Source of the DNA: an uncultured Rikenellaceae bacterium
GTDB lineage: Bacteria > Bacteroidota > Bacteroidia > Bacteroidales > VadinHA17
Assembly (NCBI GenBank): GCA_964525415.1
Contig: CAZGGZ010000009.1
Coordinates: 1-61,690 of the forward strand
DNA length: 61,690 nucleotides
Direction: 5' to 3'
Positions within the stretch are counted from its first letter, which is position 1. Each line of letters starts with the position of its first letter. The notes beneath the pieces were generated by a model. It searched no databases. It had not been told where the DNA came from and saw nothing but the letters and a program-made list of their open reading frames with translations. Shown here piece after piece: positions 31,469 to 52,281 of this stretch. A program made the translations under genes and the position numbers.

Positions 31469-32086
31469 ATGGAACAAAAAATGAATCTAAAACAATTGGA
31501 GAAGAATACTGCAGCAGTAATATTTCAAACCGGTCTTGTAGAAATTGGAATAGGACTGATGTGGGTTGTTTCAACTTTGGCCATGATCTTCGATGATATA
31601 AGTTATTATATTGACATCCTTTTTGTTGTACCAGTAATATTCATCATTCTGGCCATAAGATATATTGTAACTCCGCGTATGGGAATGGTGAAACTTGCCA
31701 GGAAGCGTATAAGAAGAAACATTTGGTTCATAGTGACTGTTACCGTTTTTCTGGTAATAATGGTCATTCTCACAATTACAGGTAATGGCCATCCCAATGC
31801 TGTACATATCAACGGGAGATGGATCATCAGTGGAATCATTCTTTTCATATGTACAACGATTGCTTATTTTCTAAATTTCAAAAGAATGTATCTCTATGCT
31901 TTTCTGTTTGCAGGGGCATTTAATCTTTCTGAAGAAATCAGGAAAAATCCCGGAATTATTTCGGATGGAGCCTATGTTTATCTGATAGTGTCATTTTTGT
32001 TAATCGTTATTGGATGCATTTATCTGATCAGTTTTCTGAAAAAGTATCCACTGCCAGAAAAAATTACTTATGACAAAGAAAGCTAA
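31469..32086 (+). CDS. Hypothetical membrane protein (about 6 TM)
   Basis: Hydrophobic ORF overlapping the downstream winged-helix regulator. Confidence 0.75.
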   Translation: MEQKMNLKQLEKNTAAVIFQTGLVEIGIGLMWVVSTLAMIFDDISYYIDILFVVPVIFIILAIRYIVTPRMGMVKLARKRIRRNIWFIVTVTVFLVIMVILTITGNGHPNAVHINGRWIISGIILFICTTIAYFLNFKRMYLYAFLFAGAFNLSEEIRKNPGIISDGAYVYLIVSFLLIVIGCIYLISFLKKYPLPEKITYDKES

Positions 32087-32390
32087 CAATGAAAACCAGC
32101 AGGTTGAAATTGATAAATTAATCCATGAACCTGCACGCCTGAAAATCATTGCCCAGTTATATGTGGTTGAAAGCGCCGATTTTCTTTTTTTAATGAGACA
32201 AACAGGACTTTCCCAGGGAAACGTATCAGGTCACCTCAGCAAATTGGAGGATGCTGCTTACGTGGAAATTGAAAAAGGGTATATTGGCAAACGGCCGCAA
32301 ACAATTATTTCACTTACAAAGAAAGGACGGGAGTCGTTTAAAAGATATATTAAAAATATGCGGGAATTATTTGATGATCTGGATGAATAA
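32070..32390 (+). CDS. Winged-helix transcriptional regulator (MarR/ArsR-like, HTH_34 type)
   Basis: IHEPARLKI, FLFLMRQTGLSQGNVSGHLSKLE and LTKKGRESF. Confidence 0.88.
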   Translation: MTKKANNENQQVEIDKLIHEPARLKIIAQLYVVESADFLFLMRQTGLSQGNVSGHLSKLEDAAYVEIEKGYIGKRPQTIISLTKKGRESFKRYIKNMRELFDDLDE

Positions 32391-32455
32391 TAATGATTAT
32401 TCTGCCAGTTATAATAATCTGTTATTAATAAAAGAATTATAAAATTAAGATAATT

Positions 32456-33886
32456 ATGAAAACTAATATCTCATTCATGTTTATTATTTTGCTTTTTAGC
32501 GAAGTGTCAATATGTCAGCATAATGAGACAGGATTTAATACTGAAGAACTGCAATTTATCATCGGAAATTGGACGGGAACAATAAATACAGGAGTCTCAA
32601 AATTTACATTTGTCTTTAAGTTTTGGGTTGACGATGATAAAATATTAAAAGGAACTCTGGATTCGCCTGAGCAGGATTTAAAAGATTTACCCGTCAATGA
32701 AATAATAATTAAAGATGACAGCCTCAAATTGGATATAAGATCCATACAGCGTAAGTACTATGCTGGAATGAATAAAAATGATAATGTTATAAATGGTTTG
32801 TATATACGAAACGGGCAAATAAATCTTCCTTTACTTCTGAAAAAGACAGAATCCGCGGTAATTTTAAACAGACCGCAAATGCCAAAAAAACCTTATCCGT
32901 ACAAAGAGGAAGAAATTTCTTTCATTAATGAAAATGATGGCACCAGACTGGCAGGGACGCTAACCATTCCAGATGGAAAAGCACCCTTCCCAGTTGTTAT
33001 TTTAATATCTGGTTCAGGAGCACAGGACAGGGATGAATCTGCATTTGGGCATAAGGTTTTTCTGGTAATCGCGGATTATCTCACTCGCATTGGAGTTGCA
33101 GTACTGCGGTTTGATGATAGAGGTGTCGGAGGTAGTTCAGGAGATCATCTTCAGGCAACATCAAAGACAAATAGCGAAGATATAATTTACGCTACCGGAT
33201 TTCTTAGATCCAGGAAAGATATAAACAAAAGGAAAGTAGGTTTAATTGGGCATAGTGAAGGAGGCTTGATTGCATCAATTGTGGCAGGTAAGTGTCCACA
33301 AATAGCATATGTTATTTTAATGGGAGCACCTGGACAAAGTATTGAAGAAAACCTATATCAACAGAACGAAATGATAAGAATGGCAGAAGGAGAAAGTGCA
33401 AATATGATCAAACAATATAATTCACTTCAGAAACAGATCTTCTCAATAATTAAAGAAGAAGCAAATGATTCAGTGGCTGCTGAAAAACTCAGATCGGCTT
33501 ATACTATGAACAGATACCAGCTTTTATCTCCGGAACAAAAGAAGATTATTGATGCGAGAATAAATGACCTCCTATTAACCCCTTATTTTAGAGATATTAT
33601 AAAGTGTGATCCTTCCCCATTTCTTCAAAAAGTAAAATGTCCGGTACTTGCAATAACAGGAGAAAAAGACCTTCAGGCATCTCCAACGAAAAATCTTGCA
33701 GCAATGGATGAAGCATTTAAATCAGGGGAAAATAAAAATTACAAACTCATTGAATTACCCGGAATAAACCACATGATGCAGACCTGTAAAAAAGGAACTA
33801 TATCGGAATATTCCGACATAGAGGAGACTATTTCTCCGTTGGTTCTGGATACTATTTCTGAATGGATACTCACAAATACAAAATAA
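32456..33886 (+). CDS. Secreted alpha/beta hydrolase (peptidase/esterase)
   Basis: Signal peptide; GSGAQDRDE, RFDDRGVG, GHSEGG nucleophile elbow, GEKDLQ and NHMMQ. Confidence 0.88.
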   Translation: MKTNISFMFIILLFSEVSICQHNETGFNTEELQFIIGNWTGTINTGVSKFTFVFKFWVDDDKILKGTLDSPEQDLKDLPVNEIIIKDDSLKLDIRSIQRKYYAGMNKNDNVINGLYIRNGQINLPLLLKKTESAVILNRPQMPKKPYPYKEEEISFINENDGTRLAGTLTIPDGKAPFPVVILISGSGAQDRDESAFGHKVFLVIADYLTRIGVAVLRFDDRGVGGSSGDHLQATSKTNSEDIIYATGFLRSRKDINKRKVGLIGHSEGGLIASIVAGKCPQIAYVILMGAPGQSIEENLYQQNEMIRMAEGESANMIKQYNSLQKQIFSIIKEEANDSVAAEKLRSAYTMNRYQLLSPEQKKIIDARINDLLLTPYFRDIIKCDPSPFLQKVKCPVLAITGEKDLQASPTKNLAAMDEAFKSGENKNYKLIELPGINHMMQTCKKGTISEYSDIEETISPLVLDTISEWILTNTK

Positions 33887-33969
33887 TTGATAGTCGATCG
33901 TATCTCTTAAGGGCAGCATACAACGTCAATCATTAATGCAGTCATCACCAACATTAGAATGATAGAAGA

Positions 33970-35004
33970 ATGAAAAAGATGCTTCTTTTAACGTCAGCAA
34001 TTCTAATTACTGGATGTGGGACACATCTCCAGAATGAATCGCAAACAGAACCAAATGCCAGAATGAATGGTAAGTATATTGCATGCTTTGATACAGCATG
34101 GAAAAGAGTGAAAGATGTTTACCCGTTTTTTGAGTTTAAGAAGATAAACTGGGACTCCATTTACACTGTTTATCGTCCTAAAGTTGAAAATGCCAATAGA
34201 AAACAGTTCACTCAAGTATTAAATGATATGCTGGCTGAACTTAAAGATGTGCATGTATATCACCAAAATGTAAAAGGGAATCAGAAATATGTATATGAAT
34301 CGCCAAGACAAACTAAGGACAAAAATGTGTATAGCCTTAAGGTTATCAGAAAGTACTTTAGCAAGAAATTGGCAAGAGCAGAATGTAAAAGTGTTATGTA
34401 TGGGATAACGCCGGAAAATATTGGGTACATTTATTTTTATGATCTTCTAAAGAGTGACCTGCGAACCGAATTTCCTGAAATATTAAAGCATTTAAGCAAT
34501 ACAAAGGGGTTGATACTTGATTTTAGGACAAGACAAGGAGGAGATTATCAGGTAATTCAGTCTGTAGTATTAAACTTCATGACTACCCCGCTTGAAAAAC
34601 CAAAAATTTACATATTGGAAGATATTGAACAGCCTCCTTTTCAACCGTTAACAGACACATTTATCTATACTAAACCGATTGTCGTTCTCATAAACGGAGT
34701 AACAATTAGTGGCGGCGAATCAATAACAGAGATTCTCAAGCAACTTCCGAATGTCACTGCAGTCGGAGATACAACAAGTGGTGGCGGCGGATGTGCCTCA
34801 GGACACACTCCTCGCGCTATAGGCACTTACCAGTTACCGTGTGGAAAAATAATATTTATCCCTACAGGCTATTTATTACGCTATGATGGCTCCCATTTTG
34901 AGTGGAACGGAGTTTCACCTGATATCAGAGTCGAACAAACTGTGACTGATATTAAAAATGGAAAGGACAAACAACTGGAGTATGCAATTAATCTATTGAA
35001 GTAA
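33970..35004 (+). CDS. S41 family peptidase, lipoprotein
   Basis: LITG-C lipobox; ENIGYIY, LILDFR..QGG, ISGGE (catalytic Ser), VGDTTSG and GVSPDI. Confidence 0.88.
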   Translation: MKKMLLLTSAILITGCGTHLQNESQTEPNARMNGKYIACFDTAWKRVKDVYPFFEFKKINWDSIYTVYRPKVENANRKQFTQVLNDMLAELKDVHVYHQNVKGNQKYVYESPRQTKDKNVYSLKVIRKYFSKKLARAECKSVMYGITPENIGYIYFYDLLKSDLRTEFPEILKHLSNTKGLILDFRTRQGGDYQVIQSVVLNFMTTPLEKPKIYILEDIEQPPFQPLTDTFIYTKPIVVLINGVTISGGESITEILKQLPNVTAVGDTTSGGGGCASGHTPRAIGTYQLPCGKIIFIPTGYLLRYDGSHFEWNGVSPDIRVEQTVTDIKNGKDKQLEYAINLLK

Positions 35005-35295: not shown

Positions 35296-35303
35296 CAAAT
35301 TTA
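35296..35303 (-). promoter_or_regulatory. -7 promoter element for the tRNA
   Basis: Minus strand TAAATTTG, 13 nt upstream of tRNA position 1. Confidence 0.6.
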
Positions 35304-37076
35304 TAAGGATTTCATGTAATTAACAAGTCCCTTGTGATCTATGATCTGCTTCAGCTTTTCAGGCAATGGCTCGAAACTGAATTCATGTGAACCGATTTTA
35401 ACCTTCCCGGAGTCAAAGTCCGGGTTTACATTGTCACCGGATTTATATGATTCCACAGCCTCCTTATGAACAATAAGCAAAAGCCCCTGATTTATTGAAG
35501 ACCGGTAAAATATCCTGTTCACCGATTTCACTATGACAGCCTCTATTCCTGCATGAACAAGCCCGACGGAAGGATGCTCCCTTGAGCTTCCGCAGCCGAA
35601 GTTCTCCCCTGCAATGATTATATCGCCTTTGCTTACACTCCTGCTGAATGCCGGATCAAAATCCTTAAAAAGAAGAGGCAGGATCGCAGGAGCATCTGTG
35701 CTGAGTATATTATAGGTATGCTTGCCTGCAAACATCTGATCGGTGTTCAGGTTATCAACATCAGCATAATTCCATACATTTCCGCACTTCCTCATCTCCC
35801 CTGCCTTAATCTCAGATGTTCTGCTCTGTTCGGGAGAAAAGGGATATCTCTCGTTACCCGGTTTCTTCCGAGGATCAGTTATAACTCCTTTTATTGCCGA
35901 TGCAGCAACAGTTTCAGGCGATGCCAGGTAAATTGATGCTTCCTTGTTGCCCATCCTCCCCAGAAAGTTCCGGTTGGCAGTTGAAATTACAGTATGTCCG
36001 CTTGCCGGAATACCCTGTCCTGTTCCAAGGCAGGGACCGCACGAAGGAGTAAGGACATTTGCTCCGGATTTAATAAGTATGCTTATAATGCCTTCATCAA
36101 TTGCCCGGAGGAATATTTCCCGTGAAGCCGGGATTACGTTTAGCTGAAATCCTTCTGCAATCTTCTTTCCTTTCAAGATACCTGCAGCGATGCGCAGATC
36201 TTCAATTCTGCCGTTTGTGCAGGTGCCGATCAGTCCTTCATGCACTATTGTTCCTGCAGCTTCAGAAACTGACTTTATATTATCCACGTTATGAGGAGCG
36301 GCGACAACGGGGAATATTTCATTTAAATTGATGTGGATCTCCCTGATGTAATCTGCATCCGGATCTGCCCAGACTCCTTTGTATTTCTTCCTGAAGAAAC
36401 CTGCAAGTATCTCATCAGCCGGAAAAACAGCATTTTTTGCTCCCATTTCCGAAGCGAGGTTCGCAATTGTCATCCTGCCGGAGATATCAAGGCTTTTGAC
36501 ACCATTACCATGGTATTCAATTGACATATAGTTTGCTCCATCTGATCCTATCATACCAATAATCCAGAGCGCAAGATCTTTTGCAGATACTCCGGCTTTA
36601 AGCTTGCCTGTCAGAGTTATTTTAACAGAATCAGGCACCCTGAACCAGGTCTCCCCTCTTTTCCAGATTCCGGCTGACTCTGTCCTGTCGATTCCTGCAG
36701 CGAAAGCATTAAAAGCCCCGGCTGTGGATGTATGGCTGTCGCTGCCGACTATCAGCATACCAGGTCTGGCATGGTATGACATTATCTGGTGGCATATTCC
36801 CTTTCCGGAATCATAGAATTTGCGGATTCCCTGCTGCTTCACAATATCCCTGATATCCTGGTACCGGGTAGCAAGCTTTGAATCTGCAGGTGGTGCATTA
36901 TGGTCCAGAACAACCAGCATCTGGTCAGGATCAGCAACTTTCTGTCCACCCATATTACAGAATGTCTTGTAAATGCTTGATGTGTTATCGTGAGTCAGTA
37001 CAATATCAGGACGGGCAAATATTATTGTGCCTGCCTGAGCCCCTAATATTTTTTCGGCGAAAGTAAAATGTTTCAT
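35301..37076 (-). CDS. Fused large+small subunit aconitase-family hydratase (homoaconitase/IPM-isomerase-like), copy 2
   Basis: THDN, LDHN, GICHQ, SDSHT, GTCTNGR, CGPC and NRNFLGRMG, then small-subunit NTDQM and GCGSSREH. Confidence 0.9.
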   Translation of the reverse strand: MKHFTFAEKILGAQAGTIIFARPDIVLTHDNTSSIYKTFCNMGGQKVADPDQMLVVLDHNAPPADSKLATRYQDIRDIVKQQGIRKFYDSGKGICHQIMSYHARPGMLIVGSDSHTSTAGAFNAFAAGIDRTESAGIWKRGETWFRVPDSVKITLTGKLKAGVSAKDLALWIIGMIGSDGANYMSIEYHGNGVKSLDISGRMTIANLASEMGAKNAVFPADEILAGFFRKKYKGVWADPDADYIREIHINLNEIFPVVAAPHNVDNIKSVSEAAGTIVHEGLIGTCTNGRIEDLRIAAGILKGKKIAEGFQLNVIPASREIFLRAIDEGIISILIKSGANVLTPSCGPCLGTGQGIPASGHTVISTANRNFLGRMGNKEASIYLASPETVAASAIKGVITDPRKKPGNERYPFSPEQSRTSEIKAGEMRKCGNVWNYADVDNLNTDQMFAGKHTYNILSTDAPAILPLLFKDFDPAFSRSVSKGDIIIAGENFGCGSSREHPSVGLVHAGIEAVIVKSVNRIFYRSSINQGLLLIVHKEAVESYKSGDNVNPDFDSGKVKIGSHEFSFEPLPEKLKQIIDHKGLVNYMKSL

Positions 37077-37081
37077 AAAAA

Positions 37082-38893
37082 TTATATTAAGCCGCCTTTC
37101 TTATATATTTCAAACTGCACATCCGAAAAAGGTTCGGCTGATGTCGTTTTATTATTCGTTGAGTTTATAACAGTTCCTGTCCGGAGATTGATTTTGACTT
37201 TGTCCCCATCCTTCAGTGCCAGCTCACTTAATGATTTGCATGTGATGATTGGAAGGGCGGCATTTATGGCATTTCTCTCATAAATTGCCCCGAAAGATTC
37301 GGCTACAATACCCTGAATGCCAAGGGAGATCAGGCAATCCACCGCCTGTTGCCGTGAGCTTCCGCTGCCAAAGTTCTTACCGGTTACAACGATATCTCCC
37401 GGACTGGCTTTCTTAGCAAAATCTTCATGCCCCTTCAGGTTATCAAAAGCATATTGCCCCATTTGACTGATGTTCGTTACAGCCAGGTACCTGTTATGGT
37501 AGATCATATCGGTATCGATGTTATCCATTTGTATCAGCCAAATCTTTCCTTCAATGAAGTCAGGTCTTGCTATCCTGTCATTTTCCTTCTTCCCCTGCGC
37601 AGCTGCTTTCTCAGTCGGCACAGGTCTTATGAAAACAGATGGTTCAGCAGGAATTTTACCGGGCGTGGTAATATATCCTGCCACTGATGATGCTGCAACA
37701 ACTTCAGGAGAAGCAAGGTATACGCTCCCTTTTCCCTGTTTTCCCGGGAAATTCCTGTTTCCGGTGCTTATTGTCACTTCACCCGGACCATTCTGACCAA
37801 CCTGTCCTGCTGCGCATCCGGCACATCCTGCATTCGAGACCAGAGCCCCGGCTTTCTTGAAAATTCCGATAAGTCCGTTTTCAAGGCATTTTTTCCAGAT
37901 ATCATCGGTTGCAGGCACGATTTTCAGTATAACCCCCGGTGCTACTTTCCTGTTATTAAGTATCTCAGCAGCCTTTTGCATATCTTCCATCCTTCCGTTT
38001 GTGCAGCTTCCTATAAAGGCTGAATCTATTTTCTGTCGTTCTAATGATGATACGTCAACAGTATCGTGGGGTTCTCCCGGACGAGACACCAATTGGGAAA
38101 AGCCTGCTACATCTATTTCGATCGTTTTATCATAGGAAGCATCAGGGTCGGCATATAGAGGAACAAATTTGTTTCGTGAATATTGGCGGCAATATTCAAT
38201 GATATATTCAGATGGCGGGAATAAGATGATTATAGCACCCATTTCAGTAGCCATGGAGGAAATGGTTATCCTGGCATCAAGGCTCATTTTGTCAACTGAA
38301 TTGCCATACAGTTCAAGTGAATACCCGAGAAGCGTGTTTGCCCCGAAGATCCTGAGAAGGTTCAGAATGACATCCTTTGGTGAAATGTTTCCGGGAATTT
38401 CTCCGTTCAACTGAATTCTGACAGATGGAGGTACCTTAAACCATATCCTTCCTTTATTCCATGCGGCAGCGATATCCATATCACCCATCCCCTGTCCAAA
38501 GGCTCCTACTGCACCAAGGATATTTGCATGTGAGTCAGTTGAAACGGCAGTAGTTCCCGGGTATACATACCCTTTATCAATAAGCAGATGTGTTCCAATG
38601 CCGGAATCAATATCATAAATCCTTATCCCGGTTTCACGGGCAAAAAGCCGGCAGATATGCTGGTTTGTTGCATATTTCTGATCCGAGCCGGTTGGATTGC
38701 AATCGAATGTAAACAGCGTTTTGCCCGGATCGTCAATGCTTAATCCATTATCCCTTAAATGTTTGACGACATTTGCACCTCCGAAATCACGTGCCACCCT
38801 GACATCAATATCAATATCAACTATTTCGCCCGGATGGACAATATCTTTATGTGAATGTGTTGCAAGTATTTTTTCAACCAATGTCATTGCCAT
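37082..38893 (-). CDS. Fused large+small subunit aconitase-family protein, copy 1 (divergent active site)
   Basis: TDSHA, GSCTNGR, CAGC and NRNFPGKQG, small-subunit NIDTD and GSGSSRQQA. Confidence 0.88.
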   Translation of the reverse strand: MAMTLVEKILATHSHKDIVHPGEIVDIDIDVRVARDFGGANVVKHLRDNGLSIDDPGKTLFTFDCNPTGSDQKYATNQHICRLFARETGIRIYDIDSGIGTHLLIDKGYVYPGTTAVSTDSHANILGAVGAFGQGMGDMDIAAAWNKGRIWFKVPPSVRIQLNGEIPGNISPKDVILNLLRIFGANTLLGYSLELYGNSVDKMSLDARITISSMATEMGAIIILFPPSEYIIEYCRQYSRNKFVPLYADPDASYDKTIEIDVAGFSQLVSRPGEPHDTVDVSSLERQKIDSAFIGSCTNGRMEDMQKAAEILNNRKVAPGVILKIVPATDDIWKKCLENGLIGIFKKAGALVSNAGCAGCAAGQVGQNGPGEVTISTGNRNFPGKQGKGSVYLASPEVVAASSVAGYITTPGKIPAEPSVFIRPVPTEKAAAQGKKENDRIARPDFIEGKIWLIQMDNIDTDMIYHNRYLAVTNISQMGQYAFDNLKGHEDFAKKASPGDIVVTGKNFGSGSSRQQAVDCLISLGIQGIVAESFGAIYERNAINAALPIITCKSLSELALKDGDKVKINLRTGTVINSTNNKTTSAEPFSDVQFEIYKKGGLI

Positions 38894-38943
38894 AGTCTGG
38901 TTATTAGAAGTTCAAATATAGTGAGAATTATACCGGGGTAAGC

Positions 38944-39792
38944 TTATCTGTACTGTGCTCTGTAATCTCTGGGTGAGATGCCTTCTGTTCGTCTGAAAAC
39001 CTTATTGAAATTGGAAATACTCTCAAAACCGCATTCAAGAGCGATATCGCGGATCTGGTACTCCGTTTCGCGAAGCAGGTAGCAAGCCTTATTGGTTCTT
39101 ACGCGGTTTACGTATTCAACAAATCCTGCTCCGCAGTTTTGTTTAAAGTAACGGCTGAAGCCGATAGGACTCATATGAGCGATTTTAGATATTTTTGCGA
39201 GTGATATAGGTCTGAAATAGTTTTCCCTGATATAAGAATACACATCAGCCATTTTCTTGTTACCCCTCTCATCATAAACCTGCTTGTAGTTTTCGGAGCA
39301 TAACAGTACTTTTTTGTCAGACTGGCACAATATCCTGAGTACATTGAAGAAATCAATCATTTTTTCAATACCCTTGTTGCCTGTCATCTGTACAAGGTGT
39401 TTTTCGGCTTTCCTGGCATCTTCAGTTGAAAAGCCTATTCCCCTTTCAGCCTGGGCCAGGAGATCCCTTACACAGGTCATTTCATACTGTCCCAGGAAGC
39501 CATCTCCAAGTGATGATTGTCTGAAATGTACCATGATCCCGTGTTTTTCAGGAAGAGTTCTATCATGCTTGTAATAATTCCAGGAGTGAGGTATGTTTCC
39601 TGCTACAAGAACCATGTCGAACTGGTCAAACAATTCAACGCTGTCACCTACGATTCGTGTTCCGTTGCTTTTTATGTTCAGAACCAGCTCATATTCCGGA
39701 TGAAAGTGCCACATACCTCCTGTATCGCTGATGTATTCGGCGACAAATCCGCCTCCGTCATCATAACTTATTTTTTCAAGTTCCGCTATCAT
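38944..39792 (-). CDS. AraC family regulator with an N-terminal cupin domain
   Basis: WHFHPEYEL, GTRIVGD, and C-terminal IALECGFESISNFNKVFRRTEGISPRDYR; ATG at 39792 preferred. Confidence 0.92.
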   Translation of the reverse strand: MIAELEKISYDDGGGFVAEYISDTGGMWHFHPEYELVLNIKSNGTRIVGDSVELFDQFDMVLVAGNIPHSWNYYKHDRTLPEKHGIMVHFRQSSLGDGFLGQYEMTCVRDLLAQAERGIGFSTEDARKAEKHLVQMTGNKGIEKMIDFFNVLRILCQSDKKVLLCSENYKQVYDERGNKKMADVYSYIRENYFRPISLAKISKIAHMSPIGFSRYFKQNCGAGFVEYVNRVRTNKACYLLRETEYQIRDIALECGFESISNFNKVFRRTEGISPRDYRAQYR

Positions 39793-39887
39793 CAGGAAAT
39801 AGTATTGGCCGGGTACTCTATCAAATTTAAGCAATATTCCTTCAATTCAGATTAAGATTCCTGCTAAAAATATTTTTTACATAATAA

Positions 39888-40147: not shown

Positions 40148-40291
40148 GATCCTTAATATCTTCATTTTCAATGACAATCCCCATAATGGAATTAAGAAAG
40201 GGAATTTCAGGTAACGGAATTAGTGAATTATTTCCATTATCTTTGTTTTCCGGTAAATTGGGTAATCGGTTTTAATATAGTTGAAAAGGTC

Positions 40292-41023
40292 ATGAAGACT
40301 TATATCAGGAGGATGGAAAAGAATGACCATCTCGTTGTCTTATACGGTGGCTGGGGTACTGATGAAAATGTTTTTACTCCGTTATGCAATGATAATTTCG
40401 ATTTTATCCTCTTTTATAACTACTCCGCTGATGAAGCACTGGTCCTTCCAGAGATGAAGGTATATAAGAAAATAATCCTCATTGGATGGTCTCTCGGTGT
40501 CTGGGCGGCCGGGTATCTGTCAGCAAAAACCGGAATAAAGCCTGATGTAACCATTGCCGTCAACGGTACACCTGTACCTGCTGATGACCAGTACGGGATC
40601 CCCCTGAAGGTTTTTGAGGGAACGCTCAATAATATTACTGAAGCCAACATGGAAAAATTCTACCTGAGGATGTTCGGCGACAAGAGGACATACAGGATGA
40701 ATGCGGACAGGATTCCTCACCGGACGGTCAAATCGCTTCATGATGAGCTCAGATGGCTCTACAACAGAATTATGGAACAGCCGGAACCTGGATTCAGGTG
40801 GGATTACGCAGTCTCGAGCGAGAATGACCGTGTTTTTCCCTCAGGAAATGTAAACAGCTACTGGAAAAAGGAAAAACTTACACGACATATTATTCTTCCA
40901 CTTCCTCATTATTTATTCAACAGATGGGATTCATTTACAGATTTTACAGGTTTTGTAGAACAGTTCAGAAAGAAAAGAGCTGTAAAAGCCAGAAAGCAGG
41001 AAGCTGTTCTTAAAGATCTTTAA
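40292..41023 (+). CDS. DUF452/BioG-type pimeloyl-ACP methyl ester esterase-like alpha/beta hydrolase
   Basis: YGGWGTD, GWSLGVW (nucleophile), AVNGT..PADDQYGIP..VFEGTL, DRVF and PHY. Confidence 0.8.
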   Translation: MKTYIRRMEKNDHLVVLYGGWGTDENVFTPLCNDNFDFILFYNYSADEALVLPEMKVYKKIILIGWSLGVWAAGYLSAKTGIKPDVTIAVNGTPVPADDQYGIPLKVFEGTLNNITEANMEKFYLRMFGDKRTYRMNADRIPHRTVKSLHDELRWLYNRIMEQPEPGFRWDYAVSSENDRVFPSGNVNSYWKKEKLTRHIILPLPHYLFNRWDSFTDFTGFVEQFRKKRAVKARKQEAVLKDL

Positions 41024-42353
41024 TCAGAATATTGGAATCGGATTTTGCTGCCAGCTTGTCGAATTTTTCGAGCATTGAGACTATCTTCTCATAGTCTTTG
41101 TTGCGAATCGCAGTATCGTGTTCAATACCTTTCTTATCAAGTTTTGACAATACATAACTTACAGTCAGCTTATTTATGTCGAGTGCAGGCTGGTATAGCC
41201 TTTCGATCTGATCCTTTTCATAGATCACAGAAACAAGACCGGCATTTGTCAGGTCCAGAAGAATATCACGTGCAAGCCTGACTGGTATTTTCAGTGATTT
41301 TCCTATTATCTCTGCACCTGCAGGTTTTTCACCTGTGGCAAAATTTCTGACAATCATATTCATCATCAATATTATCAGGGCGCGTTTGTGAAAATGGCTT
41401 ACATTAAGCGCTTCTGATTCAAATTCATAACGTGATATATTCTGGTTTGCAAACGAAAGTTCAGCTCCGATAAGGATAATTATCCAGGTTGTCTGGAGGA
41501 AAATGATGAACAAGGGTATTGCCGCCAGACCGCCATATATTGCGCTCAGCTTGGTTATTCCAAATTGAAGATCAAGATAAAGCCATTGCAGCGCTTTCAG
41601 TAATGTGCCTGCAATGATACCAGAAATCATGGCAGGCATGAATTTGACCTTGGTATTTGGCATTATTATGAACAACAGTGTCAGGATGGTCCATGTAAGT
41701 AAGAAGGGTGCGAACTTGATGAGAAAACTGATCACCGGCTTAAAAAATGCCAGAATAGGCGCTTTTGACATGAACTCGGTAAGTTCAGTACTGATAAAAA
41801 CCGTTATGCTGCTTGAAAGGATCAGAAGCACCGGTGCAAAAATCATTATTGTAAGGTAATCAGTGAACTTCCTGTACCATGGCCTCGAAGATGATATCTG
41901 CCAGATATGGTTAAATGAATTTTCTATCTGACCTAACAGGGAAATTACTGACCAGAAAAGGATTATTACACCAACCCCGGCAATATAACCGCCCCTGGTC
42001 TCCTGGATTGTAAGTCTGGCTCTCTCAAGCAGAGGTGTCAGTATCTGGCTGTACGACTGGAAATCCTTTGAATTAGTTATCATGGAATCCAGGTTCTGGT
42101 CAAGACCGAATCCTTTGGCTATCGCGAATGCGATTGCAATGACAGGAATTATTGACAGTAGCGTGTAGAAGGTGAGCGCTGATGCCCGTAATTCCACATT
42201 ATCCTTCAATGAACTACGGCCGGCAATAAAAAGGATCCTCAGCTGCCTGATAAGGAATGTCTTTCTTCTTGATAATTCTGAAAGCGGAGTGTGCCAGACA
42301 GCGTCATTCAGCCTTTTAGCCTGCTTAAGTGACCACGATACAGGGTTTCCCAT
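41010..42353 (-). CDS. YihY/virulence factor BrkB family membrane protein
   Basis: ASALTFYTLLSIIP, IENSFNHIW, IYGGLAAIPLF and GAELSFA; C-terminal HTH-like extension. Confidence 0.9.
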   Translation of the reverse strand: MGNPVSWSLKQAKRLNDAVWHTPLSELSRRKTFLIRQLRILFIAGRSSLKDNVELRASALTFYTLLSIIPVIAIAFAIAKGFGLDQNLDSMITNSKDFQSYSQILTPLLERARLTIQETRGGYIAGVGVIILFWSVISLLGQIENSFNHIWQISSSRPWYRKFTDYLTIMIFAPVLLILSSSITVFISTELTEFMSKAPILAFFKPVISFLIKFAPFLLTWTILTLLFIIMPNTKVKFMPAMISGIIAGTLLKALQWLYLDLQFGITKLSAIYGGLAAIPLFIIFLQTTWIIILIGAELSFANQNISRYEFESEALNVSHFHKRALIILMMNMIVRNFATGEKPAGAEIIGKSLKIPVRLARDILLDLTNAGLVSVIYEKDQIERLYQPALDINKLTVSYVLSKLDKKGIEHDTAIRNKDYEKIVSMLEKFDKLAAKSDSNILIKDL

Positions 42354-42436
42354 TCCCGGTGTTTTTTCAAATATACAAAATAGACGAAGGTGTATAAAGA
42401 AAATTATTATTATTTTTCACACAGGAGAAAGAGTTT

Positions 42437-43129
42437 ATGAAGATCGAAATCCTCGAATTTGTCGAAGGTGCAAAGAAAGCATCTGGCATTGCAGTTATTA
42501 TTGATGTCTTCAGGGCATTCTCAGTATCCTGCTATGCCTTTGATTCCGGGGCTGTCAGACTAATAGCAACATCGGAAGTTCAAAAGGCATTTGACCTTAA
42601 AAAGAAGTACAGGAATGTAATACTTACCGGTGAAAGAGGTGAGAGAAAAATTGAAGGCTTTGACTTCGGAAATAGTCCTACAGAAATAATTAAGGCTGAC
42701 CTGCAGGGGAAAACGGTAATACAGACAACTACCGCAGGTACAAATGGACTTATTAACGCAGTAAATGCCAATGTGTTGTTGACCGGGAGCATAGTAAATG
42801 CAGGTGCGATTGTCAGATACATAAAGCTCCTGAATCCTGACTATGTGTCACTTGTAGCAATGGGTTACAGGGCAGCTTCTTCTGCCGAAGAAGATATGAT
42901 TTGTGCTGAAATGATAAAGGCAGGGATCACCGGTAAAGAAATTAATTTTGAAAAGAAAATTACAGAACTGCGTTATGGATCTGGAAGCAGGTTCTTTGAT
43001 CCTGCAAATCTGAGTTACTCCCCTCCCACTGATTTCTTCCTCTGCACCATGATCAATAAATTCAGTTTCGTCCTTAAAGGAGAAAGACGACCCGACGGCA
43101 ACATTGACCTGATCAAAATTAATATCTGA
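42437..43129 (+). CDS. 2-phosphosulfolactate phosphatase (ComB) family
   Basis: VIIDVFRAFS, GERGERKIEGFDFGNSP, TTTAGTNG and EEDMICA. Confidence 0.85.
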   Translation: MKIEILEFVEGAKKASGIAVIIDVFRAFSVSCYAFDSGAVRLIATSEVQKAFDLKKKYRNVILTGERGERKIEGFDFGNSPTEIIKADLQGKTVIQTTTAGTNGLINAVNANVLLTGSIVNAGAIVRYIKLLNPDYVSLVAMGYRAASSAEEDMICAEMIKAGITGKEINFEKKITELRYGSGSRFFDPANLSYSPPTDFFLCTMINKFSFVLKGERRPDGNIDLIKINI

Positions 43130-43153
43130 CAAAAGAGAATTATTCGCAGGATA

Positions 43154-44110
43154 CTATAGATCGATGGAATCGGGAAGGAATACAGGTAACAGCTTTCTCC
43201 TGCTATGAATTTCACGGTAAGTGCAGAACATGCTGATTTTATAGAAACTGAACAGCCAGAGAGGCGGATTTGAAGAATCTATCCTCAGTTCCATTCTTTC
43301 CCTGAAACGGATAAAGAGAGCCACAAGAATCAGTCGAATCCTGAAGAACCGGATCCTGTTATAAACACGAAGCATTCTTGCAGTAGATGAAAAGGCTTTT
43401 TTGTCAGTGACACGGTCATAAAGTCTGCTCAGGTTTTCAAGGCTCAGCTTGGTCTTTTCAAGGAATTCATGGTTCGTTTCAAGTCCTTCATGAATAAGTC
43501 CATTGTCCATATGAAGAACGTCAATGCCTGCTTTTTTCAGCTGGTAACTAAACAGCGTATCCTCATGACCATATTGCCTGATCTCTTCATTAAACCGCAG
43601 CTTTGAAAATATTTTCCTGTCAATGAGCACATTGAATGTTGAAAAGGATGCATGTGAATGTTTGTTCCTTTCTGAAGCTTTCCTCTGTTCCCTCCTTATG
43701 CCATATTTCCATCTGAGCATCTTTTCCGGATCTCCAGGAGGGCTTTCATGATATAAAATGCCACCGGAAACAACCCTGGCATAATCCATTTCAGACAGCC
43801 ATTTGTTCAGATATGCCTCTGCAGTAGCCGGGATCATCGCATCAGAATCAATAAAAAGCAGAAAATCACCCTTTGCTTCCAGTGCCAGTTTGTTCCTTAT
43901 AGCCGCCCTGCCGATATTCTTTTCAGAAACTATTATCTTAACGCCATCGCCCTCCAGCAACATATACTTAGCACGGTTCTCTGCCGAAGAGCCATCATCA
44001 CCAATTATTATTTCAAGCAATTCCGGGACCTTACCAATACAACCCTTCATACTGTGGACCAATGCCACAATATCATAATCACATACAGGTATGAGCAAAG
44101 AGATTGTCAT
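43154..44110 (-). CDS. Glycosyltransferase family 2
   Basis: ISLLIPV, IGDDGS, NIGRAAIRN, LFIDSD and YGHEDT. Confidence 0.9.
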   Translation of the reverse strand: MTISLLIPVCDYDIVALVHSMKGCIGKVPELLEIIIGDDGSSAENRAKYMLLEGDGVKIIVSEKNIGRAAIRNKLALEAKGDFLLFIDSDAMIPATAEAYLNKWLSEMDYARVVSGGILYHESPPGDPEKMLRWKYGIRREQRKASERNKHSHASFSTFNVLIDRKIFSKLRFNEEIRQYGHEDTLFSYQLKKAGIDVLHMDNGLIHEGLETNHEFLEKTKLSLENLSRLYDRVTDKKAFSSTARMLRVYNRIRFFRIRLILVALFIRFRERMELRIDSSNPPLWLFSFYKISMFCTYREIHSRRKLLPVFLPDSIDL

Positions 44111-44172
44111 TAGCTACCCAAAGAATTAACAGACCAAAAATACAACATTTCTTTATAATGGGTTGTTATCAA

Positions 44173-44203
44173 TTTGGCAAAGAAATTGTAATGACTAATT
44201 TTG
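44173..44203 (+). promoter_or_regulatory. Bacteroidetes -33/-7 promoter
   Basis: TTTG (44173-44176), 19-nt spacer, TAATTTTG (44196-44203). Confidence 0.65.
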
Positions 44204-44231
44204 TCACAATCTTTTACAATAAGACAACTCA

Positions 44232-45650
44232 ATGAAAAAGATTATTCCTTTTATTCTTTTCCTTCTCCTGTCAGCTTCAGCATTCGGTCAGCTTAAGTAT
44301 AACCATGAGATCTCTATGACTATATCAGGACTCACGGATTCCTCAGTATACCTGGCGTATCATTTTGGCGACAAGCAGTATATAACGGACACAGTCAAGC
44401 TTGACAGCAAAGGTCACGGGGTGTTTTCAGGACCGGAAATCCTTCCAAAGGGTATCTATATGATCGTTCTCCCGGGAAAACAGTATTTTGAGTTCCTTGC
44501 TTCTGACGACCAGGTTTTTTCAGTTTCATGTAATTATATTGATTACTATAACACCCTTAAATTCAGCGGATCGGAAGAAAACAACGCATTCATTGAATAT
44601 CAGAAGAAATGGACATCAATGCAGAAGCAGGCTCAGGCTGTTTACAAGCGGATGCAGGCCGGCAAGCAGAATACTGATTCAGTCAAAGTCCTTGGTGAGA
44701 TGCAGAAGAAACAGGAAGAGTCAATGAAGACATACCTGAAAAGTGTAGTTAATGAAAACGGGAATAATCTGCTTGCTGTTCTTGTGAAATCGATGATTCC
44801 GGTGGAGGTTCCCGAATTCAAAATTCCGAACGGAACACATAATCCTGACTCCGTAATCTGGGTAAGGAAATACAATTATAACAAGGATCACTTCTTTGAT
44901 AATATTGATCTTACTGATGAAAGAATCCTGCGTACGCCAATTCTTTATGCACGCCTGGAAGCGTATTTTACTAATGTGGTAATACAATACCCCGATTCCA
45001 TAAACAGGGCTATTGACAGAATAGTAGGCAAATGCATTACAAATTATAAAGTATTCCAGTTCGTTTCAGTATTTCTTTTCAATCATTTCAGGGAAAGCGA
45101 GATAATGGGGCATGACGCCGTGATGGTTAAGCTGGCTGATGATATTTACCTGTCAGGCAAAGCAGACTGGACAACCAAAGAGTTCAGGGATGATCTGGTG
45201 AAGCAGGTTGAGCTTCTCAGAAACAACCTGATTGGAATGAAAGCGAAGGATCTTGTAATGAATTCATACAAAGGAACATATGTTTCGCTATACGATATTG
45301 AAAAAGATTTTACAATTCTGTATTTCTGGGAACCGAATTGCGGTCACTGCAAGGAAGCAACTCCAAAACTGAGGGATTATTATGAAAAGGAGCGAAACCA
45401 GGGTATTGAAATATTTGCTGTCTGTACGATTAATGATAAGGAGGCATGGAGTAAATATATTGAAGAGAACGGTCTGATATGGATCAATGGATGGGATCCT
45501 GACCGTAAAACACATTTTGACTTCTACTATAATGTCCAGTCCACACCTATGATCTATATTCTCGACAGGAACAAGAAAATAATTGCCAAGAAACTCGCTG
45601 TTGATGATATACCCTCATTCATTGATAATTACAGGAAATACGGAATGTAA
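44232..45650 (+). CDS. Secreted thioredoxin-like (TlpA/ResA-type) multidomain protein
   Basis: Signal peptide; C-terminal FWEPNCGHCK CxxC motif and YNVQSTP cis-Pro motif. Confidence 0.85.
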   Translation: MKKIIPFILFLLLSASAFGQLKYNHEISMTISGLTDSSVYLAYHFGDKQYITDTVKLDSKGHGVFSGPEILPKGIYMIVLPGKQYFEFLASDDQVFSVSCNYIDYYNTLKFSGSEENNAFIEYQKKWTSMQKQAQAVYKRMQAGKQNTDSVKVLGEMQKKQEESMKTYLKSVVNENGNNLLAVLVKSMIPVEVPEFKIPNGTHNPDSVIWVRKYNYNKDHFFDNIDLTDERILRTPILYARLEAYFTNVVIQYPDSINRAIDRIVGKCITNYKVFQFVSVFLFNHFRESEIMGHDAVMVKLADDIYLSGKADWTTKEFRDDLVKQVELLRNNLIGMKAKDLVMNSYKGTYVSLYDIEKDFTILYFWEPNCGHCKEATPKLRDYYEKERNQGIEIFAVCTINDKEAWSKYIEENGLIWINGWDPDRKTHFDFYYNVQSTPMIYILDRNKKIIAKKLAVDDIPSFIDNYRKYGM

Positions 45651-45651
45651 T

Positions 45652-46653
45652 TTATTTCCGGAGATTCCTTATCAGATCATAAATTGAACTGAAAGAAAAC
45701 TCTTTTCTGTCTGCAATAAGCTTCCACGGCTGATCTGCAAGTACGGGAACAACTATGTACGGATTGGTGATGGAATCAGAAACAACGTAACCAGCTCTTG
45801 ACAAAGCTCTCTCCGTCCATTTCCTTCTATTGCCTTCACCTTCAATGAAGAGTTTGCCGCGGGATTCATTCCGGAATATAAAGCTGCCATCTGATGAGTT
45901 GAACTTTATCACCGATGAATCAAATAGATGCTCGAAGTAACCGCTGAGCATAAGGTCCTCAGGAGATCCTTCAGCGAGCCTGTCATCCAGGATGAGCCAT
46001 ATTTTATCAGCCTGACTTACAGCAATATTGAAATCGTGTGTGGAAAAGATAATTGTCTTGCCATCCCTTGTTAGTTCCAGCATAAGGCTGATGATCTCAA
46101 ATTTGCTGGCTATATCAAGAAAGGCTGTCGGTTCATCCATTATTAAAATGTCAGTATTCTGAGCAAGCACTCTTGCAATCATAGCCTTTTGCCGTTCACC
46201 GTCTGATAGTTCCGTGATGTTCCTGTTCCGCAGAGCAGTCATTCTTGTCCTCTCTATTGCGCTCTCAACTGCAATCAGGTCAGACTGATCGGTACTGCCG
46301 AGCCAGTTTGTATGAGGGAAACGGCCAAGGGCGACCAGGTCGCAGACTCTCATATTACTCACCCTGACGACTTCGGTGGAGATGTACCCGATTCTTCTTG
46401 CCATTTCCAGTCGTGAATATCCGGATGTGCTTTTACCATTAATATATATCTCCCCTCCAAGAGATTGCTGCAGTCCTGTTATTGTCCGCAGCAATGTGCT
46501 CTTTCCAATTCCGTTCCTTCCGATGACAGCAATGAGCTCACCACCTTTTGAAGAAGCTGAAAGAGGCGGTAAAATGCAATTTACATGCCTTCCGGAAGAG
46601 AATCCGATGCATAATGAGTCGAGTCGTATTATTTCAGCCTGCTTTTCCTTCAT
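45652..46653 (-). CDS. btuD: Cobalamin ABC transporter ATP-binding subunit
   Basis: GRNGIGKST, LSDGERQK and MDEPTAFLD; ATG 46653 overlaps the permease TGA (the 490-aa ORF is over-extended). Confidence 0.88.
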   Translation of the reverse strand: MKEKQAEIIRLDSLCIGFSSGRHVNCILPPLSASSKGGELIAVIGRNGIGKSTLLRTITGLQQSLGGEIYINGKSTSGYSRLEMARRIGYISTEVVRVSNMRVCDLVALGRFPHTNWLGSTDQSDLIAVESAIERTRMTALRNRNITELSDGERQKAMIARVLAQNTDILIMDEPTAFLDIASKFEIISLMLELTRDGKTIIFSTHDFNIAVSQADKIWLILDDRLAEGSPEDLMLSGYFEHLFDSSVIKFNSSDGSFIFRNESRGKLFIEGEGNRRKWTERALSRAGYVVSDSITNPYIVVPVLADQPWKLIADRKEFSFSSIYDLIRNLRK

Positions 46654-47678: not shown

Positions 47679-47731
47679 TTCAATTTCCGATAGTACAGCC
47701 TCAGGCATTTCAGATCTTAATAATCCTTCGT

Positions 47732-51908: not shown

Positions 51909-52013
51909 TCACTCCTATCTCTATTAAAGCCTTATTCAGGATTTCAGAAGGATAAGAATGGAATCAACTCGGACTCTGAGCCTTACTTCCCGAAAGCCTT
52001 GAACATGGTTTGT

Positions 52014-52200: not shown

Positions 52201-52204
52201 TGAA

Positions 52205-52212
52205 CAAAGATA
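52205..52212 (-). promoter_or_regulatory. -7 promoter element for the riboswitch/btu transcript
   Basis: Minus strand TATCTTTG immediately upstream of the aptamer. Confidence 0.7.
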
Positions 52213-52281
52213 AACTAATTATTAAATCAAAACAGGTTGATAACTCAGGGAGATATTAACAAGAGGGTTGCTGGTTGCTGG

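Follow-up and report, generated by a model that had tools for sequence, protein, structure and literature searches.

Two fused aconitase-superfamily genes behind an AraC-type regulator

The window analysed here is the whole of a 61,690-nt stretch of DNA from an uncultured Rikenellaceae bacterium (contig CAZGGZ010000009.1, assembly GCA_964525415.1). Its minus strand carries three same-strand genes at 35301–39834 which, in order from upstream, encode an AraC-family protein and two proteins of the aconitase superfamily, P2 and P1. The elements are as follows:

38944..39792, minus strand: AraC-family gene, 282 aa counted from Met15
37082..38893, minus strand: P2, 603 aa, fused large and small subunit aconitase-superfamily protein of a distinct clade
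37077..37081, minus strand: P2-P1 spacer of 5 nt, TTTTT between the P2 stop and the P1 start (TAA-TTTTT-ATG)
35301..37076, minus strand: P1, 591 aa, fused large and small subunit aconitase-superfamily protein with a canonical active site

An initial annotation, made from the DNA sequence, had described two fused paralogues of ~600 aa, 5 nt apart and behind an AraC gene, and the open reading frames (ORFs) were as described. The end coordinate it gave, 39792, is the likely start of the AraC-family gene. The mechanical ORF (38944–39834) begins with a TTG at 39834, and Met15 at 39792 is likely to be the true start because orthologue alignments start at residues 13–15. P1 and P2 are 31% identical over their full length and are therefore the products of an old duplication. 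P2 comprises a large part (~residues 1–414), a linker (~415–445) and a small-subunit domain (~446–603).

Both proteins matched the Pfam families Aconitase (PF00330) and Aconitase_C (PF00694), P1 with 305.5 and 60.9 bits (E 1e-90 and 2e-16) and P2 with 278.8 and 55.8 bits (E 1e-82 and 8e-15), against gathering cutoffs of 28.7 and 22.8 bits. NCBIfam cutoffs were passed for TIGR01343 hacA_fam and NF001614 (P1, 480.7 and 482.8; P2, 386.9, which is marginal, and 412.4; cutoffs 385.7 and 385), the aconitase/3-isopropylmalate dehydratase large subunit family of archaeal-type LeuC/HacA. They were likewise passed for TIGR02087 LEUD_arch, a LeuD-type small subunit model (P1, 127.7; P2, 141.1; cutoff 109). 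The following cutoffs were missed, with scores given as P1, P2 versus cutoff:

LeuC/LeuD equivalogs: TIGR02083, 408, 337 versus 611; TIGR00170, 192, 182 versus 560; TIGR02084, 124, 112 versus 246
Fungal-type homoaconitase: TIGR00139, 328, 294 versus 530
Methanogen homoaconitase: HacA_Meth (NF040615), 405, 307 versus 550; HacB_Meth (NF040604), 107, 106 versus 230
Aconitate hydratase: PRK07229, 385, 320 versus 612; TIGR01342, 298, 280 versus 719

Scores against the AcnA, AcnB and mitochondrial aconitase models were far lower still. The single-chain LeuC-LeuD-type aconitases of PRK07229 and TIGR01342 have the same fused architecture of ~600–650 aa, and P2 aligns end-to-end with PRK07229 (residues 1–601 on 1–636 of 647), yet both proteins score far below cutoff. 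The closest solved structures by sequence were Methanocaldococcus jannaschii enzymes (P2 versus 4nqy, E 7e-76; 4kp2, 1e-66; 3vba, 2e-32).

These assignments bear on whether P1 and P2 could be ordinary LeuCD or HacAB isozymes for the biosynthesis of leucine, isoleucine (via citramalate) or lysine (via alpha-aminoadipate). The hacA_fam/PRK00402 and LEUD_arch matches would fit such a role, as would the nearest structures, M. jannaschii isopropylmalate/citramalate isomerase and homoaconitase. The small-domain loop of P2 also resembles that of isopropylmalate isomerase (IPMI) in that it has no Arg. However, no LeuC, LeuD, HacA or HacB equivalog cutoff was reached, and an AraC regulator is atypical for such operons. 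The recurrent identified neighbours in ~290 loci were cleavage enzymes of the citrate-lyase type, which point to catabolism. As to an association with leuA or leuB, no 2-isopropylmalate, citramalate or homocitrate synthase turned up in the part of the window scanned or among the neighbours examined in those loci, although no search was aimed at synthases. Biosynthetic isozymes are thus highly improbable, and the best explanation is that P1 and P2 are not the LeuCD of leucine biosynthesis.

A clade with an altered acid-base site

Residues of P2 were mapped using PDB alignments to M. jannaschii LeuC, HacA and LeuD and to pig aconitase (HMMER; 4kp2, 5acn, 3vba). P1 contains the following motifs:

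36981-36998, minus strand: LTHDNT
36891-36908, minus strand: LDHNAP, with the Asp-His pair present
36783-36800, minus strand: GICHQI
36726-36743, minus strand: SDSHTS
36441-36467, minus strand: IANLASEMG
36207-36227 and 36027-36044, minus strand: GTCTNGR and SCGPCL, with the cluster cysteines
35946-35975, minus strand: NRNFLGRMGN
35703-35747, minus strand: loop NTDQMFAGKHTYNIL
35574-35597, minus strand: GCGSSREH

The corresponding positions of P2, with aconitase numbering for comparison, are:

38777..38794, minus strand: ARDFGG, residues 34–39; Arg35 in place of the canonical His/Gln, at the aconitase Gln72 position
38693..38707, minus strand: FDCNP, residues 63–67; Asp64 kept, Cys65 in place of the catalytic His101 of aconitase
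38585..38602, minus strand: GIGTHL, residues 98–103, instead of GICHQ; His102 falls on aconitase His147 via a one-residue insertion
38522..38539, minus strand: TDSHAN; Asp120-Ser121-His122, equivalent to aconitase Asp165-Ser166-His167, kept
38237..38260, minus strand: SSMATEMG; Ser213 in place of aconitase Asn258, Glu217 (equivalent to Glu262) kept
37811..38011, minus strand: putative [4Fe-4S] cysteines, Cys297 in GSCTNGR (37991-38011) and Cys357 and Cys360 in GCAGCA (37811-37828)
37727..37759, minus strand: NRNFPGKQGKG; Asn379 and Arg380 kept, Lys385 in place of aconitase Arg452
37475..37516, minus strand: small-domain substrate loop DTDMIYHNRYLAVT, aligned to the IPMI small-subunit loop DTDAILPARYLVYT (3vba)
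37346..37369, minus strand: GSGSSRQQ; catalytic-base Ser and Arg (aconitase Ser642-Ser643-Arg644) kept, the next Glu replaced by Gln

Every motif quoted in the initial annotation was present: the downstream copy (P1) is canonical, and the upstream copy (P2) carries the ARD, DC, GKQG and SSRQ substitutions together with all of the Fe-S cysteines. P2 departs from the canonical set at two further places beyond that list, with Ser for Asn258 and GIGTH for GICHQ. Both proteins have the three cluster Cys (Cys297, Cys357 and Cys360 of P2 align with aconitase Cys358, Cys421 and Cys424), the Asp-Ser-His triad and the base serine of GSSR. The Asp100-His101 general-acid pair is present in P1 (LDHN) and not in P2 (FDCN). 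In aconitase, His101 is the general acid for the leaving hydroxyl, and it is considered essential in aconitase-type hydro-lyases; its mutation in the pig enzyme reportedly almost abolished activity. A second loss, that of His147 (GIGTH versus GICHQ), is probably not real. The His147 equivalent is probably retained in P2, because HMMER places the P2 His on His147 with a one-residue insertion.

Database relatives of P2 at 71–81% identity numbered more than 100, all from Bacteroidales or Bacteroidota metagenome-assembled genomes (MAGs). In a scan of one genome per species, 467 genomes contained a P2 relative, and locus analysis of close orthologues was made at species level on the best 80 of these. 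In this set P2 orthologues were 68–81% identical and P1 orthologues 66–84%, and the two were similarly conserved. P1 lay directly downstream of P2 in 78 of the 80 loci, the remaining two ending before the P1 position, with a gap of mostly ~10–270 nt (versus 5 nt in the window). The AraC-P2-P1 order was kept wherever the contig was long enough, except in loci L068 and L069, which gave no AraC match. The motifs ARDFGG, FTFDCNP, TDSHAN, GKQG and GSSRQ were invariant in 72–80 P2 orthologues, and GIGTH nearly so. Conservation of the DH-to-DC change had been proposed as a check on the initial annotation. The change proved invariant in these 72–80 Bacteroidales orthologues, and the P2 substitutions define a clade over many phyla, which excludes strain-specific decay.

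An exhaustive search of clusters at 50% identity placed P2 in a narrow but deep branch, with fused members 41–52% identical that carry the same motifs and unfused large subunits 42–48% identical. A scan seeded with an unfused member recovered unfused P2-type large and small subunit pairs from Anaerolineae, Cloacimonadota, LCP-89, Eubacteriales and Thermoplasmatota archaea. When seeded with a 52%-identical fused member, the scan gave at least 600 pattern matches and at least 589 confirmed relatives, adding Planctomycetota, Fermentibacteria, WOR-3, Acidobacteria, Aminicenantes, Delongbacteria, Fibrobacteres, Neomarinimicrobiota and many other Bacteroidota. The habitats concerned are fen, wetland, soil, lake sediment and digesters. 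In other phyla, P1-type subunits that are not fused show ~50% (large) and ~40% (small) identity to P1.

In the large part, P2-type proteins are distinguished by Arg at the Gln72 position, by Cys, Thr, Leu or Tyr (never His) at His101, by G[ST]H, by Ser for Asn258 and by Lys for Arg452, while Asp100, DSH, Glu262, the three Cys and Asn-Arg are kept. In the small domain the loop reads HN[RKQS][YH]L[AST][IV]T, and SSRQQ occurred in 125/126 P2-type small domains; P1-type small domains have the loop [AP]GK[HY]TY, and SSRE[HQ] in 94/94. The full signature was found in the window P2, in all 44 P2-type large subunits or fusions from loci L081–L138 and sequences P0121, P0122, P0126 and P0127, while P0135 deviated solely by a Gly at the Arg452 position. 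All P2-type sequences sampled had G[ST]H, and a sister group (P0138/P0143) had GQH. Arg occupied the Gln72 position in every P2-type and sister-group sequence; His101-containing sequences all had H, Q, N, S or T there. The exception to the pattern was P0136, a relative without DSH that combines His35 with Cys65. Judged from these alignments, what the clade shares is that His101 has been lost and Arg acquired at the Gln72 position, and we infer that Arg35 may take over part of the role of His101 in P2.

The DH-to-DC change was among those listed for the rewired site. The Cys as such is not the key feature. Because the position varies among Cys, Thr, Leu and Tyr across the clade, Cys65 is unlikely to be an essential catalytic thiol or a fourth cluster ligand, and both candidates were rejected.

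Cluster cysteines were kept in every P2-type sequence sampled. Only two degenerate fused relatives, P0123 and P0128 (41% and 38% identical to P2), lacked them together with the Asp-Ser-His triad, and these look like cluster-less pseudo-enzymes from the P2 branch.

Could P2 itself be a dead or regulatory paralogue, a pseudo-enzyme that partners or modulates P1? It has lost the canonical general-acid His, and P0123 and P0128 indicate that its branch is capable of decay. Against this, the three Cys, DSH, Glu262, Asn-Arg and the Ser-Ser-Arg base are kept across distant phyla, and the replacement residues (Arg35, Ser213, Lys385, GSSRQQ) are invariant, which argues for selection for a specific active site. 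P2-type proteins also have their own dedicated small subunit when unfused, and often no P1 is nearby (a P1-type gene lay in only 23/68 of the non-AraC flanks described below). A pseudo-enzyme role is accordingly very improbable, and the heterodimer with a pseudo-enzyme offered in the initial annotation is unlikely.

A recurrent gene module and the AraC-type locus

Outside the AraC lineage, P2-type genes recur in a module with the order Iso_dh (an isocitrate/homoisocitrate-type dehydrogenase), a small HD-domain protein (HD), P2 and P1. Its cleavage partner is either citrate lyase, with CitE fused to an acyl carrier protein (CitE-ACP) plus CitF, or citryl-CoA synthetase (CCS) plus citryl-CoA lyase (CCL). 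A non-AraC set, defined by the absence of the AraC gene, comprised 68 loci with at least 3 kb on both sides of P2. HD was found in 32 of these, a cleavage system in 27, Iso_dh in 24 and a P1-type gene in 23. In a search from Iso_dh, P2 followed directly after Iso_dh-HD in 46 of 56 informative Iso_dh-HD loci; the other arrangement, without P2, accounted for 10/56. The HD protein gave no PDB match (best E 0.89) and no NCBIfam match, and Pfam returned only the generic HD domain.

The complete order CitE-ACP-CitF-Iso_dh-HD-P2-P1, or a permutation of it, occurred in Cloacimonadota, Delongbacteria, WOR-3, Acidobacteria, Eubacteriales and several Bacteroidales. A Eubacteriales locus (L134) has Iso_dh, HD, a fused P2 (60% identical to the window P2), CitE-ACP, CitF (528 bits versus an NCBIfam cutoff of 501) and P1 large and small subunits, and a Thermoplasmatota locus has the P2 large subunit, small subunit, HD, CitE-ACP and CitF. 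The Anaerolineae order is CCS-beta, CCS-alpha, CCL, HD, P2 large subunit and P2 small subunit, with an Ldh_2 (malate/lactate dehydrogenase family) gene upstream. Here CCS-beta and CCS-alpha stand for an ATP-grasp gene and a CoA-ligase gene that together resemble succinyl-/citryl-CoA synthetase, and the lyase (258 aa) scored 263 bits versus an NCBIfam cutoff of 212. A P1-type large and small subunit follow the P2 pair in four Anaerolineae loci, three of which also have Iso_dh; in most Anaerolineae loci the order is CCS-CCL-HD-P2 and no P1 lies within 7 kb. P2 of L124 has as its partner a TIGR00139 'homoaconitase' (865 bits versus 530), and in L183 succinyl-CoA synthetase (SucCD) and a class-I fumarase adjoin the module. 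A full-text literature search found no published description of the P2-type clade or of the Iso_dh-HD-P2-P1-lyase module; coverage of subscription journals was thin, so a prior description may exist. The module is apparently undescribed but widespread in anaerobes.

Several minor features of these loci were recorded. The Anaerolineae CCS-like beta subunit (ATP-grasp_2; L086:1888-3435, with orthologues in L081–L097) is unusual in being fused at its C-terminus to an extension that contains two CxxCxxCxxxC-type ferredoxin-like motifs. A LarA-family gene (nickel-pincer 2-hydroxyacid racemase/epimerase type) follows CitE-CitF in a WOR-3 genome (L182:14774-16009), and LarA homologues at 25–29% identity lie within the P2 flanks of nine Anaerolineae loci. 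Subunits of 2-oxoacid:ferredoxin oxidoreductase occur near P2 in L198 and L152. These genes, SucCD and fumarase of L183, the LarA-family gene of L182 and the saccharopine-dehydrogenase-type genes of L168 are occasional neighbours, each confined to one or two loci. ORFs of IS200-like (Y1_Tnp) transposases are found on both sides of the P2 large-subunit gene in L109 (6472-6783 and 8394-8876; LCP-89) and between HD and P2 in L168 (7195-7794; Cloacimonadota). Directly upstream of CitE-ACP-CitF-Iso_dh-HD-P2-P1 in L168 (7-2409) are a gene with a saccharopine-dehydrogenase C-terminal domain and an AlaDh_PNT-family gene. This would suit the metabolism of lysine or alpha-aminoadipate, but a lysine/saccharopine link of the module was considered and rejected, as the arrangement did not recur in other loci.

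In the window and in all AraC-type loci, P1 is the only companion of P2, and the neighbours that mark the module elsewhere are absent within ~8 kb. No HD homologue was found in the window or in AraC-type loci by six-frame search with a hidden Markov model built from 8 HD proteins. The initial annotation had remarked that no homocitrate synthase or isocitrate-family dehydrogenase gene is adjacent, which holds for the window genes scanned (31469-35004, 40223-47124 and 47732-61348, with the overlapping ORF 46653-47708 left out). The missing dehydrogenase is nevertheless a peculiarity of this lineage and not of the system, Iso_dh being part of the module elsewhere.

Two observations connect the AraC-type locus with the module. 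In L150 (Bacteroidales), Iso_dh-HD-P2-P1 and CitF-CitE lie between BioG and BrkB/GT2, just as AraC-P2-P1 does in the clade of the window. In MAG BF4_76, AraC-P2-P1 is on one contig (JAVEZX010000010, L075), and another (JAVEZX010000003, L294) carries the genes for CitE-ACP, CitF, an M20 peptidase, Iso_dh and HD, the last of which is not followed by P2. This layout indicates that the module was split into two loci, not lost, in at least one AraC-type genome. We infer that P2-P1 of the window belongs to the module pathway; in its Bacteroidales lineage the pair would have separated from the genes for the dehydrogenase, HD and lyase and come to lie behind an AraC-type regulator.

The M20 peptidase gene recurs in 7 loci and is divergent from Iso_dh in L294 and L276. 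On the complete Bacteroidales chromosome of L276, a different AraC-family gene (7912-9048, 378 aa, non-orthologous to that of the window) stands after Iso_dh-HD, at the usual place of P2.

The C-terminus of the window's AraC protein matched HTH_18 (82.8 bits, cutoff 33.6, E 2e-23) and HTH_AraC (52.9 bits, cutoff 26.6, E 4e-14). Its N-terminal half matched no Pfam family (E up to 0.01), and no NCBIfam equivalog cutoff was reached; this half presumably binds ligand. Only one Bacteroidales clade has this gene, which precedes P2-P1 in 58/58 AraC-type loci with at least 3 kb on both sides (some contigs counted twice) and in 0/68 of the non-AraC loci, a set defined by its absence. Since the pair lies behind an AraC-type regulator, its expression is probably under the control of a small-molecule signal. 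One promoter-like element was identified:

38913..38920, minus strand: TATATTTG, which fits the Bacteroidetes -7 promoter consensus TAnnTTTG, in the 50-nt AraC-P2 gap at 27 nt from the P2 start

TAnnTTTG occurred in the equivalent gap of only 17/78 sequences, the window included, which makes it weak evidence and an internal P2 promoter uncertain. Scans of the locus for sigma-70 promoters and terminators performed no better than on shuffles, and P2-P1 may be co-transcribed with the AraC gene.

Function, substrate and relation to known systems

The reading we favour, on an even balance of belief, is that P2 and P1 are the hydro-lyase pair of one pathway acting on a citrate-like tricarboxylic acid, part of the recurrent anaerobe module and here under AraC control. 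The initial annotation had offered, as one possibility, that the pair acts on a non-standard di- or tricarboxylate in an inducible catabolic route; the Iso_dh and citrate-lyase-type context in other lineages fits such a non-leucine route, with both enzymes in one pathway. The pathway, its direction, its substrate and the division of labour between P1 and P2 are proposed as follows. Judging by their residues, both proteins would be functional [4Fe-4S] hydro-lyases. The module would link a 2-oxo acid, an 'iso' tricarboxylate, an aconitate-type alkene and a tertiary-alcohol tricarboxylate: Iso_dh (beta-decarboxylating) would act on the 'iso' hydroxy-tricarboxylate, the hydro-lyases would move the hydroxyl, and the citrate-lyase-type system would cleave the tertiary-alcohol acid to acetate or acetyl-CoA and a shorter 2-oxo acid. 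The presence of cleavage enzymes and of no Claisen-type synthase argues for a catabolic or dismutating role. Within the pair, P1 would most likely catalyse the step between the aconitate-type alkene and the 'iso' acid, as homoaconitases do, and P2 the other step, to or from the citrate-type acid, or a step on a stereo- or regio-isomeric substrate. P1 has the full catalytic set and the [AP]GK[HY]TY loop common to fungal-type-homoaconitase-like sequences (P0144: PGKYTY), so the simplest assignment is alkene/'iso' acid for P1 and tertiary alcohol/alkene for P2.

Two substrate series are candidates, 2-oxoglutarate, isocitrate, aconitate and citrate, or 2-oxoadipate, homoisocitrate, homoaconitate and homocitrate. 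CitF and CCL scores above their cutoffs point to the citrate series, as do the tricarboxylic acid (TCA) cycle-type neighbours (SucCD and fumarase in L183, Ldh_2 in Anaerolineae). The homo series is suggested by the TIGR00139 partner in L124 and by the best NCBIfam matches of Iso_dh, which are methanogen homoisocitrate dehydrogenases, below cutoff. In NAD-isocitrate dehydrogenases the Asn of the Ser-x-Asn motif binds the gamma-carboxylate of isocitrate. The substrate loop of Iso_dh reads Y-R-S-P-I-V-R-M-R, that of NAD-isocitrate dehydrogenases S-x-N and that of Thermus thermophilus homoisocitrate dehydrogenase A-I-R-Y-L-R; in Iso_dh the Asn is replaced by Ile, as in the Thermus enzyme. Roughly, the citrate series claims about half of our belief and the homo series a clear minority of it, with something else less likely again.

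Several observations weigh against the proposed pairing. The mixed clues leave two substrate series. Because His101 is needed in pig aconitase, P2 as a hydro-lyase without it requires an unproven compensating mechanism. No partner of any kind was found in 25/68 non-AraC loci, mainly from Cloacimonadota, Thermoplasmatota and Planctomycetota, and neither the window nor any AraC-type locus has an Iso_dh, HD or cleavage gene within ~8 kb of P2-P1. Only DNA metagenomes contain this sequence, and no RNA runs with it were found. Finally, many loci have Iso_dh-HD-P2 without P1 nearby, which would fit P2 as a complete isomerase at least as well.

In that case P2 alone would interconvert citrate and isocitrate (or homocitrate and homoisocitrate) with a rebuilt acid-base apparatus, and P1 would serve a related substrate, for example of another chain length. 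The tightest linkage is Iso_dh-HD-P2 (46/56), mostly with no P1 in the flank, and most Anaerolineae loci are of the CCS-CCL-HD-P2 type; between them, these arrangements set P2 beside a user of the 'iso' acid and a user of the citrate-type acid. However, all AraC-type loci and loci from many phyla have P1, or a P1-type pair, immediately after P2, and loss of His101 would be expected to cripple both half-reactions in the canonical mechanism. The flanks examined span only 6–8 kb, so P1 may sit elsewhere in those genomes. We consider a self-sufficient P2 unlikely, though worth keeping in view.

P2 might also act on a different isomer, such as trans-aconitate or a plant-derived or isomeric tricarboxylate, and feed P1, with HD as an accessory and the AraC regulator making an inducible uptake-and-conversion unit. 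The cluster and base are kept, but positions that contact the substrate differ: Arg replaces Gln72, Ser replaces Asn258, Lys replaces Arg452, and the small-domain loop is altered. The small HD protein constantly adjoins P2, habitats are rich in plant litter, a Na+/solute symporter gene adjoins some operons, and the window has its AraC regulator. Yet nothing direct points to a particular substrate, and symporter genes stand beside the operon in no more than four separate loci (L217 and L150 being one contig). No isomerase is known in the HD family, and HD is not adjacent in the AraC-type lineage. Such an isomer-specific role is improbable on present evidence.

More tentatively than the hydro-lyase pair itself, we suggest that P2 may be the founding member of an ancient clade without the Asp-His general acid, with an invariant Arg instead, that works with the HD protein in an undescribed anaerobic pathway reversing 2-oxo-acid chain elongation. 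Reductive carboxylation would be followed by two-enzyme isomerisation and then by citrate-lyase-type cleavage. Such a route could convert 2-oxoadipate to 2-oxoglutarate and acetate, a reversed alpha-aminoadipate segment, or 2-oxoglutarate to oxaloacetate and acetate, a route of glutamate fermentation.

The closest precedent for a two-enzyme isomerisation is that of homocitrate in fungi and Thermus (aconitase/Aco2p with Lys4/LysF/HacAB). As the initial annotation correctly stated, fungal homoaconitases catalyse only the homoaconitate-homoisocitrate step and a second enzyme is needed; aconitases, including that of T. thermophilus, convert homocitrate to homoaconitate, and in yeast Aco2p an Arg-to-Lys exchange adapts the enzyme to the longer substrate (PMC3556520). 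The likeness lies in two aconitase-superfamily hydro-lyases serving one isomerisation, in the TIGR00139 partner of L124 and in a module dehydrogenase with homoisocitrate-dehydrogenase-like features. There are also differences. In fungi and Thermus the first-half enzyme is a canonical aconitase whose catalytic set is complete, whereas His101 is missing from P2; P2 shares an Arg-to-Lys change with Aco2p, but at a different Arg (Arg452); P1 scores below the fungal homoaconitase model (328 versus 530 bits); and the fungal/Thermus pathway is biosynthetic and starts with homocitrate synthase, whereas the present module carries citrate-lyase-type cleavage enzymes instead.

The M. jannaschii enzymes LeuCD (4kp1, 4nqy, 3vba) and HacAB (4kp2, 2pkp) have domain organisation and NCBIfam subfamily in common with P1 and P2. 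They are separate-subunit heteromers with the canonical HD, DH, CHQ, N..E and GRxG residues, whereas P1 and P2 are single-chain fusions, P2 with an altered set. According to a passage in PMC3556520, which cites Drevland 2008, LeuCD and HacAB each carry out both half-reactions.

Another possible analogy to P2, HD and P1 is a set of dehydratase, small accessory protein and second aconitase, namely AcnD, PrpF and aconitase. In the 2-methylcitrate cycle, AcnD makes the 'wrong' alkene isomer, PrpF corrects it and a second aconitase is then needed. However, AcnD is a long AcnA-type protein, and P2 scored only 81 bits against its model (cutoff 1420). PrpF is not an HD-domain protein, and in the last step of the methylcitrate cycle a lyase cleaves the 'iso' acid, whereas the module has a decarboxylating dehydrogenase and citrate lyase.

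The cleavage enzymes of the module belong to the same families as those of the citrate lyase CitDEF operon and of the Hydrogenobacter-type CCS/CCL of the reductive TCA cycle, with CitE fused to ACP, although none of these genes lies near the pair in the window. To our knowledge, classical citrate-lyase operons have no aconitase-type or Iso_dh genes and no HD protein. CitC, CitG and CitX were not identified in the module loci examined, with no systematic search made for them.

What is new here is an aconitase-superfamily clade with a rebuilt acid-base site in an apparently undescribed anaerobic module, its function read from linkage and precedent. A large conserved clade without His101 but with the other catalytic and cluster residues would imply either that protons are relayed in another way or that the scaffold supports another reaction, and it occurs in hundreds of uncultured anaerobes of wetlands, sediments, soils and digesters. 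Public annotation calls these proteins homoaconitate hydratase or 3-isopropylmalate dehydratase, so genome-scale models would assign them to leucine or lysine biosynthesis or ignore the clade. Linkage to Iso_dh, HD and citrate-lyase-type enzymes suggests unrecognised turnover of tricarboxylates, glutamate or 2-oxoadipate in anoxic carbon cycling. As a bacterial test case, the pair also bears on why two aconitase-type enzymes are required per isomerisation in some pathways.

The remaining scanned neighbours of AraC-P2-P1 have no obvious tie to organic-acid metabolism. They include an S41 peptidase, an esterase, BioG, a YihY/BrkB membrane protein, a ComB-family phosphatase, a GT2 glycosyltransferase, a thioredoxin-fold protein and a TonB/ABC uptake cluster. 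At 40223-43129, genes for a BioG-type pimeloyl-ACP methyl esterase, the YihY/BrkB membrane protein and a ComB-family 2-phosphosulfolactate-phosphatase-like protein are syntenic with AraC-P2-P1 across the clade, and these are probably just stable neighbours. A functional tie of BioG, BrkB/YihY, the ComB-like phosphatase or GT2 to the pair was rejected, as the synteny does not extend beyond one clade of close relatives and, in L150, these neighbours enclose the full operon; nothing supported the ComB-like phosphatase as a substitute for the HD protein. The minus strand at 45652-51908 encodes an ABC ATPase, a Peripla_BP_2 binding protein, a DUF5074 protein and a TonB-dependent receptor (Plug domain), a cluster unrelated to the pair that has the look of metal-chelate or cofactor uptake.

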